Notes: generated by a model from the sequence alone, not told the origin. A stretch of 63,328 nucleotides of DNA, filler included, from Octopus bimaculoides (GCF_001194135.2; 5 parts of 5 records of this genome joined end to end with filler, not necessarily neighbours in it); one strand, 5' to 3'. Positions 22,421 through 32,160 are shown, counted from the whole stretch's first letter. Made by a program: numbers and translations.

Positions 22421-23176
22421 GTAATAGATAATACTAAATATATACACGTGAGTTTTGTAGGGAAGTGGTTATACACCATTAGGTGTACTCCGCTTCCGTA
22501 CATTAAATTTCTTGAAGAAACAACGGAACGCAGATTCTGAACAACACAACAATATTTATTTACAGTGGAATTCGGCTTACGCGTGAAGGGAGTTCGGTAG
22601 CTCGTCGCCTTTGGTTACTGAGACGCCTTCAATGAAGTTCGTGGTTATTTGTGAAGCTCTGGTGCTGAGTTGTAAGAGAGCTCTGTGGGATGTCTAGGCT
22701 CGACGGAGATCAGTGAACGAAGAGGCTGAAAAGAAGCGCGAAAGCTTGGATGTCGAACTCTACGCATGTGCATGAGACTCTTCCTGTATTCCTTCCGGAA
22801 CTAGTCCCTGCGCATGCGTGGATAAACTTTCCGGAAATGTCATCTGCTATTAGGCGTCACTACATGGCTCCCCCTCGAGTGTCGAAAGCACGAAAATAGA
22901 AAATTTGGAGGGACGCCTGAGGCAAGATGGCTACCAAAAACACCCACAAGATGTGGCACAAATATATATAATGAAAAATCAAAAAAAGTGATGTACAATT
23001 GTGATATACATGCATGCATGTACAAAAGAATTGAGAATGACAAAACAACCGTGATGACAACTGTCCAGGAAACTGGAATCACGCGATGTAAAAGTCTGAT
23101 TTTTTCTTTTTTTCCCTGAAAGGAAAGAAGATATTCAATAGGAAAGCACTGAAATTGTCCAATGAAACACAATAAG

Positions 23177-26100
23177 TTAAACATAAATAGTCTTTGCCAG
23201 TTTCTTTGGCCAATGCACTGTCCTGCCAGATCTAGTGACATAAGGATCACTTGAGTTTCGTTGCAATGATGAAGGTGGAGTGATTTCCGGAGTGTGTTCT
23301 TGTGATGGTGTTGATGTATGGATTGGTAAAGATGTTGACAGTGGTGTGTGCGGTGTTTGAAAAACGGGCACGTCGTCCACGGAAGTTGAGGGTTTTTCAA
23401 GGTACGCTTTTTGCAGACGGTCGACAGACACAACCTCTGTACGACCATTAGCGTCGACCTGGAAAAACTTTGGCGTGCGAGAAAGCACACGAAGGGGTCC
23501 TTTATAGGGAGGAACAAGGGGTCCTTTGACAGAATCATCCCTAACGAATACTTGAGACCAAGACTCAATGTCTGCTGGCACTTGAGAGGGAGGTGACTGT
23601 TGTCTGGGACCCATAGCTGGAAGATTGGAGAAATACTCCCGCAACCGAGTAACATAAGACTCTGGATGAGGTGGTTGTGATGAGTCTGGTACCACCATCG
23701 TACCAGGCAACGCCAGTGTGGTCCCATAAAGAAGCTCCGCCACAGAGAAACCCAGGTCAGCTTTGACCGCAGTCCGGCATCCAAGGAGGACGACCGGAAG
23801 AAATTCAACCCAAGACTACGGGTTGGGCGAGGTGCGTAAGGCAGCCTTAAGTTGCCTATGAAATCGCTCCACCATCCCATTAGAAGCGGGATGGTAGCTG
23901 GTGGTGCGTATACGATGCACCCCCAAGATTCGTGATAATTCACGAAAAAGCACGGCCTCAAATTGCCGGCCACAATCTGTGGTCACACTGGACGGTACAC
24001 CATACCGAGAAATCCAGCCAGACACGAAGGCTTGAGCGACAGTCTCAGAAGTAATATCAGCTATAGGAATGGCTTCTGGCCAGTGGGAGAACCGATCGAC
24101 ACATGTTAACAGATATGAGAACCCACGACTCACTGGCAATGGTCCAACCAAATCAAAGTGGACGTGACGGAAACGGGCCTCGGTGGATGGAAATTGTCCA
24201 AGTGGGGCACGGACGTGCTGGTGAACTTTTGCACTCTGGCACTTCAAACAAGAGCGTGCCCAAGCAGTGATCGACCGCCGCATGTTGGGCCAAAAAAAAA
24301 CGAACTGTAATAAGTTTGACTGTCACAGAGATGCCCGGGTGTGACAAGGAATGAAGNNNNNNNNNNNNNNNNNNNNNNNNNNNNNNNNNNNNNNNNNNNN
24401 NNNNNNNNNNNNNNNNNNNNNNNNNNNNNNNNNNNNNNNNNNNNNNNNNNNNNNNNNNNNNNNNNNNNNNNNNNNNNNNNNNNNNNNNNNNNNNNNNNNN
24501 NNNNNNNNNNNNNNNNNNNNNNNNNNNNNNNNNNNNNNNNNNNNNNNNNNNNNNNNNNNNNNNNNNNNNNNNNNNNNNNNNNNNNNNNNNNNNNNNNNNN
24601 NNNNNNNNNNNNNNNNNNNNNNNNNNNNNNNNNNNNNNNNNNNNNNNNNNNNNNNNNNNNNNNNNNNNNNNNNNNNNNNNNNNNNNNNNNNNNNNNNNNN
24701 NNNNNNNNNNNNNNNNNNNNNNNNNNNNNNNNNNNNNNNNNNNNNNNNNNNNNNNNNNNNNNNNNNNNNNNNNNNNNNNNNNNNNNNNNNNNNNNNNNNN
24801 NNNNNNNNNNNNNNNNNNNNNNNNNNNNNNNNNNNNNNNNNNNNNNNNNNNNNNNNNNNNNNNNNNNNNNNNNNNNNNNNNNNNNNNNNNNNNNNNNNNN
24901 NNNNNNNNNNNNNNNNNNNNNNNNNNNNNNNNNNNNNNNNNNNNNNNNNNNNNNNNNNNNNNNNNNNNNNNNNNNNNNNNNNNNNNNNNNNNNNNNNNNN
25001 NNNNNNNNNNNNNNNNNNNNNNNNNNNNNNNNNNNNNNNNNNNNNNNNNNNNNNNNNNNNNNNNNNNNNNNNNNNNNNNNNNNNNNNNNNNNNNNNNNNN
25101 NNNNNNNNNNNNNNNNNNNNNNNNNNNNNNNNNNNNNNNNNNNNNNNNNNNNNNNNNNNNNNNNNNNNNNNNNNNNNNNNNNNNNNNNNNNNNNNNNNNN
25201 NNNNNNNNNNNNNNNNNNNNNNNNNNNNNNNNNNNNNNNNNNNNNNNNNNNNNNNNNNNNNNNNNNNNNNNNNNNNNNNNNNNNNNNNNNNNNNNNNNNN
25301 NNNNNNNNNNNNNNNCGCGGAATCTGATGCGTCCATAGATAGTGAAAGGGGGGCTTCAGGAGCCAGATGTGCAAGGACAGGAACGGAGGATAATTCCCGT
25401 TTGACGGACTCAAAAGCTGACAATGTCTCAGCAGAAAGAGTGAGTCGAGCATCCTTCTTAGTGTGGCCTTGCAGTAGCCTAGTTAATGGAAGAAGCTTAT
25501 CAGCACATCGGTGTATAAATCTTCTGTAAAAATTGACAATCCCCAAGAAGTGGCGCAACTGTCTTAAAGAAGTTGGAGGTGCGATGCGTTGAATGGCATC
25601 GACCTTTGAAGGAAGAGGTCTGATTCCACTGGGATCAATAAAATGTCCAAGAAACTCCAGAGAAGATTGCCCGAAAATACATTTATTCGGATTGACTTTC
25701 ACGTTGTATGAACGGAGTCTCTGGAAAAGCAGTGATAAATGGAGATGATTTTCTTCCGTATTGCTAGCGATGAGTTTGTCATCAACATAAGCAAAAACAA
25801 AATCAAGTCCACGGACGACCTCATCTATGAATCTTTGAAAGGTGCTGGTAGCATTTCGCAAACCGAAACTCATGAACAGGAATTCAAAACAGCCGAAAGG
25901 AGTGGTGATGGCTGTCTTAGGAAGTCCTCTGGATTGACCGGTATCTGATGATAGGCCCGTACCAGATCAGTCTTAGAGAAAATGGTGTGCCCATGCAGGT
26001 TTGCCGAGAAATCTTGCAGGTTCCTAATTGGATAGCAATCTGCTATCGTCACGGCATTAAGTCGCCGATAGTCCCCCACCGGGCGAAAATCCGTGTCCCC

Positions 26101-26684
26101 TTTACGGGCCAAATGAAGAGGAGATGCCCATGGGCTGGTGGAGGGGCGAATGAAGCCGAGTTGAAGCATGTGTTCAAACTCAGCCTTGGCCGTCTTAAGA
26201 CGGTCAGGCGCTAGACGACGTGGGCGTGAAAAAATGGGTGGTCCAGTCGTCTTGATGTAATGGAGGGTGGAATGCACGGGCTTCGCCGGTTTGAAAGTGA
26301 TGTCCACCAGCTCCGGAAAAGACACTAAGAGTGAATGAAAAGCATCCCCAGCAGTGGCAATAAAAAATGCTGGGCTAAGAGGGGAATTGGTAGAGCTCCT
26401 TGCCAGCGTGGAAAGGTATGTCGAGTTGTCGACAAGCCTCCGATGTCGAACATCTACCAACAACTGGAAGTGATTTAAGAAATCCGCACCTAAAATAGGA
26501 TACAGAATGTCAGCTATGACAAAACCCATTGAAAGTCTCTACGAAGACCGATGTCTAAACGTAGAGAAAGCTGACCAAAAGTAGGAATCGGGGACGAGTC
26601 AACGGCGTGCAAAACAATCGCCGAGCGGCGAGGTTTGTCTGAAGTAAGGCGAAGTGGCCAAATGCTACAACAGGAGCCAGTGTC
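23177..26684 (-). pseudogene. Gypsy pol (protease, RT, RNase H, integrase) with frameshifts, an in-frame stop and an N gap
   Basis: Protease DTG and ILGADFL; RT PWASPLHL, DYRRLN, DLVRAYHQIP, MSFGLRNA, FAYVDD; RNase H MDASDSA; integrase HFDLVGPLP, VDRFSHWPEA, TDCGRQFE, YHPASNGMVERFHRQLK, GPLVPPYKGP. Frameshifts near 26530, 25910 and 24295; stop at 23816. Confidence 0.95.
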
Positions 26685-26989
26685 NNNNNNNNNNNNNNNN
26701 NNNNNNNNNNNNNNNNNNNNNNNNNNNNNNNNNNNNNNNNNNNNNNNNNNNNNNNNNNNNNNNNNNNNNNNNNNNNNNNNNNNNNNNNNNNNNNNNNNNN
26801 NNNNNNNNNNNNNNNNNNNNNNNNNNNNNNNNNNNNNNNNNNNNNNNNNNNNNNNNNNNNNNNNNNNNNNNNNNNNNNNNNNNNNNNNNNNNNNNNNNNN
26901 NNNNNNNNNNNNNNNNNNNNNNNNNNNNNNNNNNNNNNNNNNNNNNNNNNNNNNNNNNNAAAGAGGACTGCCGTGGAGAAACTGTGGAG

Positions 26990-27490
26990 GCCTCAACACA
27001 CTGCCAAACAGCGCAAGAAGGGTTACCCGAGTATTCGAGAACTCTATCGGCCATTGTGGCCACTTGGTCCACAGTGTTCGACTCGAATGCCGTCGCTAGA
27101 ATAGTTTTAACGTGTGGCGGCAGACGAGAAAAAAATATCTTGCAAAGAAGTTGGGGCATCTGTTGATTCACCGCTTAACTCCCGTAAATGTGTTAGAAAT
27201 TCCGTGGGAGTTCTGTCACAGAGTTGTTTGTCTGCCATCAGCTCATTGAATCGGCTGGTGGCAGACCTGGTGGTCCTGCATAGGATTTCGGTTTTTACCT
27301 CGTCATACGTGACGTCATCCTTCAGAGATGTGAATAGGTCTTTAGACACTTTTGTAATCGATGGAGGCAGATTGCAATAAAGCAACTTTAACCTCTTAGT
27401 TGGTGAAACATCATAAGCGTCAAAATAAGCCTCCAACTGGGCGAAATAAACATCGGTATCACCGATGAATGTGGGTAAACTATGCGACAT
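26990..27490 (-). pseudogene. Gypsy gag (frameshifted near 27145)
   Basis: MSHSLPTF...YFAQLEAYF...RFNELMADKQLCDRTPTEFLTHLREL, continuing in another frame as KIFFSRLPPHVKTILA...VATMADRV; typical of Gypsy capsid. Confidence 0.85.
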
Positions 27491-29406
27491 ATTCTTATTG
27501 GGTTGACTCCGTCAAGATAGGAAAATGGAATGGAAAGAAACAATGAAAACGAAACCGTATGAGATATTCGAGAGGCCAAAAAAAAAATTTTCACCGCTAA
27601 TGAAAAAGACACAATAGTGTTCATGTTCTTGTTTTGTGTTTTTTTTTGTAATTTACGGTGTGCACAAACAAAAGGAGAGAAAAAAAAGAAAATTCGTAAA
27701 AAATACAATTGTGTTTGCTTTTTTTTTCTTCTTTTTTTTTGTGTGTATGTGTGTACTGAATACAGGGAAAAAAATTATCACCCACCTTTGTCACGCTGAA
27801 AAGGAAATATAACAGAATAAAAGGGCAGAAAATTAAATGTGTGCGAGTTATTAAAGCTGTCCTGCTAGACAGAGTCCGAAGCAACGTCTNNNNNNNNNNT
27901 GCGAGTTATTAAAGCTGTCCTGCTAGACAGAGTCCGAAGCAACGTCTATGGTGAAATATAGCGATTAAGATTAACCACGAAAAACGCACGTGTAGTCGGG
28001 CAGAAAATCACTGATCTGTTGTTAGCCTTATCTCGCTGTCCAAGGCTTCTGTTAAAACATGTGTGACAGGCGACGGCTTGTGTAGTATCGATGTGTTATG
28101 TACTCACTGAAATGTAACTGTGCATTTTACTGCTATTTTCAGCAAGTAGAGGATACTGTGTAAGAATGAATTGNNNNNNNNNNGATGAAATAACCGTGAA
28201 GTTTTTGTGTGAAAAACCACAAAGGTCTTAGCTGTAAAGAAGTCTTTGGTTATAGGCTCTGGAAGTCATTGACAAAATGAAAAACGTTAACGTAGAAAAA
28301 TTTTCTTAGCTTTTCACTTGTAATGGATGAGAATGTAGAGGCAATCCTGAAGTTGAACGTCACGAAGAATACGAATTCAATAGCTGTTGAAAACGAGGTC
28401 TGTAGATCTTTTAGCTCGGGGTACTAATTGTAGTATTATTGGTCGCAGTTCAGATTTTCGGCTGCAGTTGTTCTTTATTCGGGGTCATCAATTATAGGGA
28501 AGTACCGTGTGATGACCAAGAGAAAGTCCTGCAGTTGTGGAATAAGCTGATGCGAGTGATTGTGTGCATTCTCTATCTGTGACGAGCATGTTGNNNNNNN
28601 NNNTCCCGGCTGCAGTTGTTCTTTATTCGGGGTCACCAATTGTAGGGAAGTGGTTATACACCGTTAGTTGTACTCCACTTCCGTACATTAAATTTCTTGA
28701 AGAAACAACGGAACGCAGATTCTGAACAACGCAACAATATTTATTTACAGTGGAATTCGGCTCACGCTTGGAGGGAATTCGGTAGCTCGTTGCCTTCAAT
28801 GAAGTTCGTGGTTATTTGTGAAGCTCTGGTGCTGAGTTGTAAGAGAGCTCTGTGGGACGTCTAGGCTCGACGGAGATCGGTGAACGAAGAGGCTGAAAAA
28901 AGCGTGAAAGCTTGGATGTTGAACTCTACGCATGCGCATGAGACTCTTCCTGTATTTCTTCCGGAACTAGTCCCTGCGCATGCGTGGATAAACTTTCCAG
29001 AAATGTCGTCTGCTATTAAGGCGTCACTACAGTTTCATACAGAATGAGATTTATTTAATTTAAAATATAAGTTAAAAAACAAATTAATTATAAAAAAATA
29101 CATATAAAGCAGTTAAAAACTAAACTTTGAAATGAATCTAATTTATAAGGTCAAGAGGGTAGATTAATATCAAAAAGTTGAAACCAATATTAATTTAATA
29201 AATTAGCATATTAATCAATTAGTGTAAGTGATTATGAATATGCAGATATACAGCTATAATATCCTATCCACATACAAATTAGTAAGATTATGATAATATT
29301 CCAGCTATAGAATCTATGAATGGATAATAATAGTATGATTCAGTGTAAACAAGGAAGGGAGCATAATAAGCAAGTGTGATAAGGAATGGAGCCATTTAAT
29401 TAGGTC

Positions 29407-32160
29407 TGTAGTGACGCCTGGTTCCAGTCGCCATTTTGGGATTTTCATCCACGCATGCACAGGGATTAGAGCCTTCTGGAAGGCCTGCCGGAAGCCCCTT
29501 ATATGCATGCACAGTCATCAGCAGCCGCTAGGCTTGACCGTTATTCTCTCTCTCTGTCTCTTCTGACCAAGACACACGCATCTTGGCCAGCTCCATGTAG
29601 CTGGAATACTGAAGGCGCCACACGACGTTGGCTAACCGGTGAAGAATGCCTTCACATTTGTGATTAAACTGACTCTGTTGCTTCCACACCAAGGCAATCT
29701 GGCTACTGATTCTCCCAAGATGTAATGCTTGTACAGATGAAAAATAAATATTGTTATTTGTTTGGATATTCTTGTTCCACTATTTTCCTTCCATGACTAT
29801 GTAAGGAATTGTGTGGCACTTATCCAGTACCAACCTTGCTTCCTACAATTGGTGACCTCAACGTGATATCCAACACGCAGCTCAATGTTCACATGGAGGT
29901 TTACAAACTGATGACCCCGACATGATCATGAGGTCATGCCCGATGTGATTCCGACACGCAGCCTGACATTCACACAAACATTTACTAAATGATGAACCAG
30001 TGCCAGCTTCATGACCAACCACTCTTTCACCTTTTCGCTACAGTTATTTCATCCTTTATCGTCTATTTTGTCTTACACAAAATGACTGGTGGGGGGCTTT
30101 GTAGCGTACTTCTCTCTCTCTCTCTCTGTTATATATACATGGATGCGGACGTAGTAGATAACAGCTAGCCTTCAGCCACATCTTTGGACCTTGTTGTGTC
30201 CACCACTCTGATTGGTTGGTATTGGTGCATTTTGTCTCTTGTTCTATTTCGCACCAGGGTGCAACCCAACCAATCGCTGCATTCAGATAAGGTCACGTTG
30301 GACAGTCTTTCTGAAGGCGGTGATTGGTTGGGTTGCACCCTGGCGCGAAATAGAACAGGAGACAAAATGCGCCAATACCAACCAATCAGAGTGGTGGACA
30401 CAACAGGGTCCAAAGATGTGGCTGAAGGCTAGCTGTTATCCACTAGGTCCGCATCCATGTATATATAACAGAGAGAGAGAGAGAGAAGTATGCTACAAAG
30501 CCCCCCACCAGTCATGTTGTGCAAGACAAAATAGACGATAAAGGATGAAATAACTGTAGCGAAAAGGTGAAAGAGTGGTTGGTCATAAAGCTGGCACTGG
30601 GTCACCAATTTGTAAGGACTGTGCGATCAGGAGATGGCAATGAGGAAATGGCTCCTTTAGCACATTGCCCTGTCGATACAAATAACAAACATGAAAAGAG
30701 GCTAAATGTATATAAGTGCCAAGAAGGAAAAGAGAGACACAATCGGTAGAAAGTTTAAGAGAAGGTTTTATTGATATGTCAACACGTGTGTCTGTGTGTG
30801 CGAGAAATACAGAGCATAGAAAAGAGTCTATAAGGACGTTGAGAGAAAGTCCAGACGCATGGATGGTAAATACTAGTTCGTAGGTCAAGGTACAAAGTAG
30901 TTAAGCTGCTGTAACAAGAAGTTGTGGCAGTAAGGCGGAGCCAGGAAGAAGGCACATGTGAGAAGGTAAGGCTTCAATGTTGCGGCCGGTTACTTGGTAC
31001 AGGAATTCTCACAGGTTGTACTTGCTGTTAACCATGGTGAAACAATTCACAAACAGTGTTGAGAGAACTTGTGCAAGTGCCGTTGGTGGTGTGTACATAG
31101 AGAAGTTGGTGTAGTCAAGAAGACAATGGTGTTGATGAAGATGGAGTGTCCTGAATGCTGTTGAACGAAGTGTTGGTGTTCTCCATGAAGCTGCTGTCGC
31201 GTCGTCGCTGGAACTGGCTGTGTGTTCTGTGGTCAGTGGCTAGACCTCAGAAGGTCTGGAGCAGACTGACAACCAGGACGGTGTAACAGCTACCTATTTA
31301 TAAAATACCATCGGCTCAAACAGGGGTTCAGAAATACTGTCCCATGCGACCTTATCTGAAGGCAGCGATTGGTTGGGTTGCACCCTGGCGCGAAATGGAA
31401 CAGGAGACAAAATGCGCCAATACCAACCAATCAGAGTGGTGGACACAACAGGGTCCAAAGATGCAGCTGAAGGCTAGCTGTTATCCACTATGTCCACATC
31501 CATGTATATATAAAAGAGGGAGAGAGAGAAGTACGCTACAGAGCCCCCCACCAGTCATTTTGTGCAAGACAAAATAGACGATAAAGGATGAAATAACTGT
31601 AGCGAAAAGGTGAAAGAGCGGTTGTTGCCACATATTGTGGGTGATCGGTAGCCATCTTGTTTCTAGCGCCACTGCAATCTTCCTATTTTCATGCTTCTGC
31701 ACTTGAGGGGAAGCCTTGTAGTGACGCCCGGTTCCAGTCGCCATTTTGGGATTTTCATCCATGCATGCACAGGGATTAGAGCCTTCTGGAAGGCCTGCCG
31801 GAAGCCCCTTATGTGCATTCACAGTCATCAGCAGCCGCTAGGCTTGACCGCTATACTCTCTCTTTGCCTCTGCTTCCAACTGAGACACGCACATCTTGGC
31901 CAGCTCCATGTAGCTGGAATACTGAAGGCGCCACACGACGTTGGCTAACCGGTGAAGAATGCCTTCACATTTGTGATTAAACTGACTCTGTTGCTTCCAC
32001 ACCAAGGCAATCTGGCTACTGATTCTCCCAAGATGTAATGCTTGTACAGATGAAAAATAAATATTGTTATTTGTTTGGATATTCTTGTTCCACTATTTTC
32101 CTTCCATGACTATGTAAGGAATTGTGAGGCATCCATCCAGTGCCAACCTCACTCCCTACA
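29407..32160 (+). mobile_element. Non-autonomous composite LTR element (family A) without coding capacity
   Basis: LTRs at 29407-29847 and 31717-32160 (TGTAGTGACGCC...CCTACA); TSD GGTC (29403-29406 / 32161-32164); PBS at 29850-29867; PPT gaggggaagcct at 31705-31716; no TE protein motifs inside. Confidence 0.92.
30611..31540 (-). mobile_element. Family B LTR (930 bp) with a PPT on one side and a PBS on the other
   Basis: Minus strand: GGTGGGGGGCTC|TGTAGCG...CCTTACA|AAT-TGGTGACCC. Partial copies of its 5' end lie at 30310-30497 (-) and 30100-30297 (+). Confidence 0.85.

Follow-up and report, generated by a model that had tools for sequence, protein, structure and literature searches.

Behind the 5' LTR of a non-coding element of Octopus bimaculoides (element A), a first-pass annotation had listed four motifs resembling a tRNA-Trp primer-binding site (PBS), two of which appeared to continue past the length of a canonical site. 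The question raised by this locus is how one element came to hold several antisense copies of its primer tRNA, and which of these copies serves in priming. The window referred to below is the whole stretch of DNA that was analysed, 63,328 nucleotides including filler, in which five parts of this genome are joined end to end.

Element A and the composition of its array

All four motifs were found where they had been placed (Table 1). Element A, which lies within the window's second joined part (8372-34476) and corresponds to G000:C17 near 36.84 Mb of the 2.34 Gb genome (G000), is an LTR retrotransposon of the non-autonomous kind, having paired TG...CA LTRs, a PBS, a purine tract (PPT) that precedes the 3' LTR at 31717, a 4-bp target site duplication (TSD), GGTC, outside both LTRs and no coding region, no stop-free frame of at least 120 aa being present in 29.4-32.2 kb. 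The array was spanned by one contig in all three of the DNA runs examined, with 0, 0 and 1 differences and at a single-copy depth like that of the flanks, and is no assembly artefact. No reads on the array were noted in approximately 6% of one RNA-seq run, an observation to which no weight is given here.

Table 1. Positions of LTRs, array units and related features in the window.
Feature	Position	Strand	Evidence
Element A (non-coding), 5' LTR (TG...CA)	29407..29847	+	94.4% identity to 31717-32160 over 444 columns
Unit 1, antisense mature tRNA-Trp nt 76-46	29850..29881	+	positions 1-31, 28/31, one insertion
Spacer 1, U5-end remnant of another LTR type, not LTR A	29882..29908	+	P 0.001 vs L315 LTR end; 0.69 vs LTR-A end
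Unit 2, PBS copy of canonical length (18 nt)	29909..29926	+	16/18 match
Short insert separating units 2 and 3; likely degraded U5 sequence rather than the beginning of a PBS	29927..29938	+	own match not significant
Unit 3, antisense tRNA-Trp positions 8-33 (T-arm, variable loop), acceptor end absent	29939..29964	+	23/26
Spacer 2, second, more decayed U5-end remnant	29965..29989	+	P 0.019 vs L315 end
Unit 4, decayed 9-nt PBS	29990..29998	+	7/9 match
Intact 9-nt PBS in inverted internal copy, context as unit 4	30599..30607	-	sequence match
Element A, 3' LTR, without PBS unit, then TSD	31717..32160	+	LTR alignment and flank comparison
Element C, Ty3/gypsy type, broken, retaining LTRs and parts of gag-like, RT, RNase H and integrase regions	22456..29031	-	LTRs 91% identical
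Element C, split PBS: 12-nt core, A-rich loop, second block = tRNA nt 45-50	28608..28638	-	sequence match

Host tRNA-Trp(CCA) genes were present in 11 of the 30 loci retrieved by a pattern search of the genome. A cluster of at least 10 such genes, together with gene-like copies, was noted at G000:C6:23.0-23.2 Mb (L027-L034). An Rfam tRNA search of the same genome gave 17 matches, none of which was called Trp, and ARAGORN found no tRNA in the window. The 3' half of the host tRNA, with CCA added, had the reverse complement expected by the first-pass annotation; its T-arm matched the extension, and a T-arm mismatch, which would tell against an extended site, was absent.

Positions within units were numbered from the 3' end of tRNA-Trp including CCA (reverse complement). 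The extended match claimed for copies 1 and 3 held over positions 1-31 of copy 1 (28/31), in which an extra A is inserted at position 19, opposite A58, whereas copy 3 covered positions 8-33 only and the preceding bases (29927-29938) were not PBS-like. The extensions past nt 18 in copy 1 and in copy 3 were each found to outscore 99.9% of 18,693 random 28-mers. Predicted duplex energies for units 1 to 4 were -51.8, -24.9, -52.3 and -15.7 kcal/mol, and no real pairing was predicted for unit 4 (ddG +0.4 with the whole tRNA). Of the four motifs, copy 3 does not begin as a PBS at its 5' end, and copy 4 is predicted no longer to pair.

The sequences between units were compared with those of relatives. 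The equivalent of spacer 2 in one relative (L171) outscored all 3,000 background draws. The window's own insert between units 2 and 3 gave a significant match neither to a U5 end nor to sense tRNA; its better preserved equivalent in L171 gave P 0.002-0.005 against U5 ends as opposed to P 0.019 against sense tRNA. A fold-back into sense tRNA as the source of this insert scored below a U5 origin and was considered less likely. Judged by these alignments, the array is a series of antisense host tRNA-Trp copies separated by LTR-end remnants.

The window copy of the cassette that contains the array was compared with 16 other copies, all of which carried an extended unit, an LTR-end-like spacer of approximately 25 nt and a 9-nt PBS. 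This last motif, the counterpart of unit 4, was an intact PBS in most of the 16, and unit 4 is likely the oldest PBS of the cassette. The composite of unit 2, insert and unit 3 was present in 5 of the 16 (L169-L172 and L176), one copy had a gap there, and the four-motif form was present in none (0/16), being seen at this locus alone. Spacers of the cassette matched the U5 end of another LTR type, not that of LTR A. Because 15 of the 17 copies share a mismatch at position 21, the extension has been passed on by inheritance rather than re-copied; re-copying in the other two copies (L174 and L175) was not shown by the tree. From these comparisons, the array in element A is best read as a two-unit form joined to the composite form. 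A one-off local duplication, which had been named as one outcome that would undo the first-pass interpretation, is contradicted by the extended unit kept in 16/16 other copies. Conservation within the family extends to this extension but not to copy number, which varies from 1 to 6 units per site.

The same non-coding cassette (L168-L184) was preceded, in different carriers, by up to six types of upstream sequence, between which no alignment was obtained (15 carriers compared). Two of these types were verified as LTR pairs (L168 and L179), and the pattern suggests swapping of LTRs between helper families.

An inverted repeat was also noted inside element A, involving the regions 30016-30611 and 30310-31624, with arms of approximately 300 bp that are 93% identical; the latter region is occupied by a block in reversed orientation, made up of internal sequence together with a second LTR-like piece and a 9-nt PBS (Table 1). 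A transcript of element A would be predicted to fold through this repeat into long double-stranded RNA. Similar hairpins were seen in some relatives (L051 and L052).

The unit used for priming

Because the 3' LTR ends where the first unit begins, in element A as well as in ten relatives for which both LTRs are present (L116, L126, L131, L135, L157, L168, L179, L186, L319 and L321), it was the first unit that primed in each of them. By this measure unit 1 is the PBS that was used in making element A, and the LTR boundaries show the first unit to be the usual primer site. The proposal that the array acts as a multi-primer landing pad has partial support: the same boundary was seen in element A and eight multi-unit or extended relatives that retain both LTRs, whereas solo LTRs that hold internal units within their TSDs fit occasional downstream priming, or recombination.

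In 9 of 41 testable cases, as opposed to a rough estimate of 0.4 expected, the last unit was succeeded by a terminal U5 repeat and this in turn by a solo-LTR TSD; two of the nine TSDs were TATA in TA-rich sites and are weaker. A tenth TSD-flanked solo LTR with units (L125) was judged by eye. Such solo LTRs could reflect priming of the parent at one of its downstream units, or else recombination involving the short U5 repeat. Occasional priming from a downstream unit is probable and would shift units into the LTR, but the 100 retrieved stretches of approximately 10 kb contained no full element in which both LTRs hold a unit. One candidate for such an element, L132, was rejected, its LTRs aligning over only about 75-130 nt and no TSD being fixed.

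Split primer sites and tRNA copies in related elements

Element C gave Pfam matches to DUF7041, RVT_1, RT_RNaseH_2, rve and Integrase_H2C2, with the domain order RT-RH-IN, and is possibly of a helper lineage. Host tRNA-Trp(CCA) matches the PBS of both A and C, and TSDs of 4 bp were found for A (GGTC), for C (AAAC, after a one-base boundary shift) and for solo LTRs. A CHCC Gag motif was present in relatives L117, L120 and L148 and was not found in C, of which the gag end abuts an N gap, or in A, which is without gag. On the basis of a tRNA-Trp PBS and a 4-bp TSD, with CHCC Gag in relatives, elements A and C appear to fit the CsRn1 clade of Ty3/gypsy (PwRn1, AgCR) as described in the accessible part of PMC2582038.

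The second block reported for element C was present at 28608-28613, and the split PBS to which it belongs was predicted to form a two-helix duplex of -41.8 kcal/mol. Two copies of U5 end and split PBS (28459-28503 and 28607-28651) flank a gap of 10 Ns in this element, and the copy at 28459-28503 may be a true duplication or an assembly duplicate. Real multi-unit sites are carried by the C-type relatives L136, L147 and L166.

Across the genome, the PBS core together with the block for tRNA nt 45-50 gave 400 matches as opposed to 20 for a control that was the reversed pattern, a shuffle test being the fairer comparison. In 109 sites, tRNA 7-mers were enriched at starts 11-16 and 26-38 (20-40 sites as opposed to 4-8 after shuffling), near background over the T-loop (starts 17-22) and at background from 40 on, in counts that are weighted by one cluster of 55 related sites; counted by cluster, the enrichment peaked at 9-14 of 27 over starts 25-33. 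Many coding CsRn1-type relatives contain a second block complementary to tRNA nt 45-52, and sometimes 35-44, for which pairing is predicted. The block was kept in coding copies with RT 43-73% identical to that of C (L117, L120, L137 and L141) and was absent from the CHCC-bearing L148, from L115 and from one L138 site. As in sites of the Ty1/Ty3 type, a conserved second template block, lacking in L148 and L115, matches the primer outside its 3' end, with predicted pairing; a half-tRNA-primed arrangement of the copia and Ty5 type, in which the PBS matches an internal 3' end in the anticodon arm, was not found, all sites starting at the CCA end. The second block is not required for capture of tRNA sequence, because an L148-type LTR that is without it still yields overrun copies.

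Bipartite PBSs are known from Ty1 and Ty3 of yeast (PMC5371799, PMC3681743), and extra primer contacts from the PAS of HIV and from pairing of U5 with the T-arm in RSV (PMC3185550); here and below, comparisons refer to the accessible parts of the cited papers. In common with these systems, the octopus sites combine a short acceptor-stem match with a separate T-arm block, the segments of Ty1 being split by a small internal loop. They differ from Ty1 and Ty3 in the primer (tRNA-Trp as opposed to tRNAi-Met), in a block that lies 5-15 nt 3' of the core, can reach the anticodon and has its pairing predicted, and in that tRNA sequence, reported not to be inherited there, is evidently inherited here at times. 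The accessible description of CsRn1 (PMC2582038) mentions no second block, extension or repeats; its supplement of PBS alignments, outside this comparison, may bear on the point. The conserved second block points to an extended primer interaction, predicted from complementarity, in a widespread invertebrate clade, for which no description was found in the literature searched.

A metagenome scan for such sites gave at least 116 matches, nearly all of them attributable to chance, and the 35 IMG/VR matches all lacked a second block as well as an 18-nt PBS. Among the metagenome matches listed, L279 and L294 combined an LTR-like end, an 18-nt tRNA-Trp PBS and a second block, which in L294 differed by one base, as covariation would give; these are a lead only.

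Arrays recurred across the genome. An LTR end followed by a 10-nt PBS core gave 301 matches as opposed to 15 for the control. The 100 of these matches that were listed were all retrieved or combined with an adjacent one, and in a sample of 90 sites drawn from them and not selected on the 3' side, 29 had 2-5 units. Over all loci, which were partly chosen for extensions, 2-6 units were present in 62 of 144 sites, and units per site ranged from 1 to 6. Spacers were generally the U5 end of the element's own LTR, and a CCTT common to both sequences forms the junction between tRNA copy and final U5 bases in L142 and L360.

Near-contiguous copies of positions 9-31 were also numerous (236 matches, tRNA genes included, as opposed to 0 for the control; those listed had zero mismatches). 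The tRNA-Trp from which they derive presumably carries m1A58, m1G37 and m2,2G26, and m1A causes misreading by RT. A per-position substitution test, which covered positions 18 and 19 only, gave nine matches with a base other than T opposite A58 (position 19) as opposed to none at position 18; seven A and one G were in LTR-PBS context and one C was in a tRNA-gene-like copy. With four matches on one LTR type, this signal may represent as few as five independent lineages (5 as opposed to 0, p ~0.06, with one control position). End points of copies differed by lineage, occurring at 15, 18, 19-21, 29-30, 32-36, 38, 39, 41-42, 50 and approximately 67 nt. Among 88 copies that keep the T-loop, 16 were tRNA genes or gene-like, and of the other 72, mostly from few families, 38 ended at 41-42 and 20 at 32. 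The longest copies were found at L398 (G000:C22:13301700), where an LTR end is followed by 50 nt that copy mature tRNA-Trp perfectly, break off just ahead of G26 and turn back into LTR sequence in inverted orientation, and at L412 (G000:C12 near 34496000), where a decayed copy of approximately 67 nt is followed by sense-strand tRNA. The copy at L398 shows that an intact tRNA was its template.

The two origins proposed in the first-pass annotation each have support and are complementary: extended or bipartite pairing is borne out, as far as complementarity can indicate, by split sites in coding relatives that reach the 5' strand of the T-stem, the variable loop and sometimes the anticodon stem, and capture of read-through tRNA cDNA by contiguous copies that bear signs of RT read-through.

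Origin of the array

The origin that we favour, and consider probable, is plus-strand synthesis that overran m1A58, continued along the primer tRNA and afterwards returned to the U5 end by slippage. Synthesis would start at the PPT, copy U3-R-U5 and enter the tRNA, where RT would sometimes pass m1A58 and stall further along. A match to U5 of only a few bases, such as the CCTT of L142 and L360, would then let the nascent strand anneal there once more, whereupon the U5 end and PBS would be copied again and transfer would proceed normally via the last PBS copy. The expected product is a 5' LTR followed by tRNA copy, U5 end and PBS, with a normal 3' LTR and the new unit after the left LTR; units would afterwards be inherited as ordinary internal sequence. 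Further units would come from repeated slips or from recombination between cassette variants, the four-motif form being such a join. In its native split form, the site may also help to retain the primer, or capture overrun strands directly. While the anatomy of the units can be read from the alignments, the overrun and slip-back are steps that we infer from genomic copies rather than from observed cDNA intermediates, with the tRNA modifications assumed. Inclusion of the CCA end and T-loop of the host tRNA in the copies argues for an overrun. Also in its favour are the substitutions opposite A58 and the extra A there in unit 1, the lineage-dependent end points, the spacers derived from U5 ends, the multi-unit sites, the 3' LTR boundaries at the first unit, the solo LTRs with units and the split sites; against it stand the small number of independent lineages behind the A58 signal, the mismatch at position 21 that most cassette copies inherited and the absence of the second block from some families. 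A split primer site is already present in many coding CsRn1-type relatives, and for this reason the extension is probably tolerated and may even be favoured.

Over-extended plus-strand strong-stop DNA and a primer over-extension sequence are known from HIV-1 and other lentiviruses, with minor stops at 55, 54 and 37 (PMC13191261; PMC8599865), and the statement in the first-pass annotation that canonical PBSs are at most 18 nt was on this account too strict. Minor products of HIV RT in vitro that extend up to A37 (PMC13191261) are consistent with an overrun origin of the octopus copies, whereas the view that HIV overruns beyond position 54-55 are non-productive (PMC8599865) counts against it. 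In HIV, and on the favoured reading also in the octopus, RT passes m1A58 and copies further; in lentiviruses short overruns are able to transfer by virtue of complementarity in the template immediately 3' of the PBS. The working overrun there is approximately 4 nt and longer ones are dead ends, whereas octopus copies reach 32-50 nt and more, have become fixed in the germ line, and are passed on and repeated along with U5 ends. Isolates of HIV-1 of the MAL type contain a partial PBS duplication of 23 nt (14% of isolates; PMC3185550), which resembles the octopus units as an inherited partial repeat just downstream of the working PBS; it is a single partial repeat, not said in the accessible text to exceed tRNA nt 18, as opposed to up to six units in many families.

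Extra primer sites or tRNA sequences of other kinds were also compared. Drosophila Gypsy has two tRNA-Lys,2 sites, of which only the 5' one is needed (PMC1635307), and is alike in having an extra primer site but differs in that the second lies at the 3' end of the genome. Mature tRNA captured at the PBS is likewise seen in Culex cqgypsy_1, in which a tRNA dimer is accompanied by a 26-nt LTR duplication around the tRNA copies (PMC3286476), although this is a single family that its authors likened to Twin SINEs. The tRNA-like Pol III promoter within the LTR of Helenus and TRIMp3 is unrelated to the primer (PMC10886601), whereas the tRNA sequence in the octopus elements is the antisense primer itself and adjoins the LTR. 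A literature search, for which most subscription journals, Repbase and the primary CsRn1 and Boudicca papers were outside scope, turned up no account of PBS arrays, or of long tRNA copies fixed in elements like these; Repbase and the two primary papers may cover part of the phenomenon. Each ingredient (overrun products, split PBS, PBS duplication) is already known from retroviruses or yeast elements, and what is unusual here is the scale and inheritance within one animal clade, with a modification signature.

A bolder extension of the overrun origin, which is possible although on balance doubtful, is that CsRn1-type elements have become adapted to leakage at the m1A58 stop. Their split site, extending as far as the anticodon, would both hold the tRNA and catch over-extended plus strands, copies of mature modified tRNA would routinely be written into the germ line, and each new combination of tRNA copy and U5 end would provide a working primer-plus-integrase end in reserve, making LTRs longer and allowing a non-coding cassette to pass from one helper LTR family to another. 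If so, the genome holds a readable record of tRNA modification sites.

Selection for an extended primer-binding surface seems unlikely as an alternative to the overrun. According to this explanation most of the tRNA 3' half was once bound by the ancestral site; the T-loop part disappeared from coding families, and non-coding elements retained or amplified whole sites in competition for primer, as on a landing pad. In its favour are the conservation of block 2 and block 3 across diverged coding families, predicted duplexes about twice as stable as that of the 18-mer, units inside TSD-flanked solo LTRs and the use of bipartite sites by Ty1 and Ty3 (PMC5371799). It accounts well for block 2 but not for the repeats: unit number varies from 1 to 6, downstream units such as unit 4 decay, arrays occur also in coding relatives (L120, L136 and element C), and lineage-specific end points and fold-back copies point to copying accidents.

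Still less probable is ordinary tandem duplication or unequal recombination of DNA, after insertion, acting on one old extended PBS. Such events offer no source for the T-loop, anticodon-arm and CCA sequence that many LTR families carry, with end points that differ, or for the substitutions at position 19, and independent, differently ended tRNA copies were already seen in separate LTR lineages. The four-motif form is single-copy, however, and might represent a local join, slippage occurs readily at short direct repeats, and solo LTRs with units could form by recombination of an inner U5 repeat with the 3' LTR end; DNA-level duplication may thus account for some copy-number steps.

Priming by a tRNA-Trp 3' half cut in the anticodon loop, with run-off synthesis giving 42-nt copies, would explain why enrichment ends at the anticodon and why 42-nt ends recur in L305, L306, L130 and two families, but it is very improbable, since most other ends fall short of 42 and a stall near modified 34/37 gives the same border. 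As the sole cause it is ruled out by L398 (50 nt) and L412 (approximately 67 nt), copied from intact tRNA. Finally, little credence can be given to the suggestion that the array serves as target or decoy of 3' tRNA fragments, which do act on PBSs of mouse ERVs and would be bound by extra sites, given that known tRF3s of 17-22 nt need no match of 32-42 nt (PMC7472051), that more sites should raise silencing and that the copies are decaying.

On the favoured reading of overrun and slip-back, RT products deemed dead ends in virology are present here as hundreds of inherited genomic copies, of which the end points and A58-opposite substitution track the expected tRNA modifications. They offer a sequence-only route to where the RT of LTR elements stops on its primer in an animal germ line, and to how PBS duplications, longer LTRs and LTR swaps arise. 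In annotation, such copies can pass for tRNA fragments and call for caution. As a separate observation, an LTR family with 15-nt PBS units (L124, L140, L143, L163, L102 and L103) mostly adjoined TA repeats, an association that may reflect a target preference.
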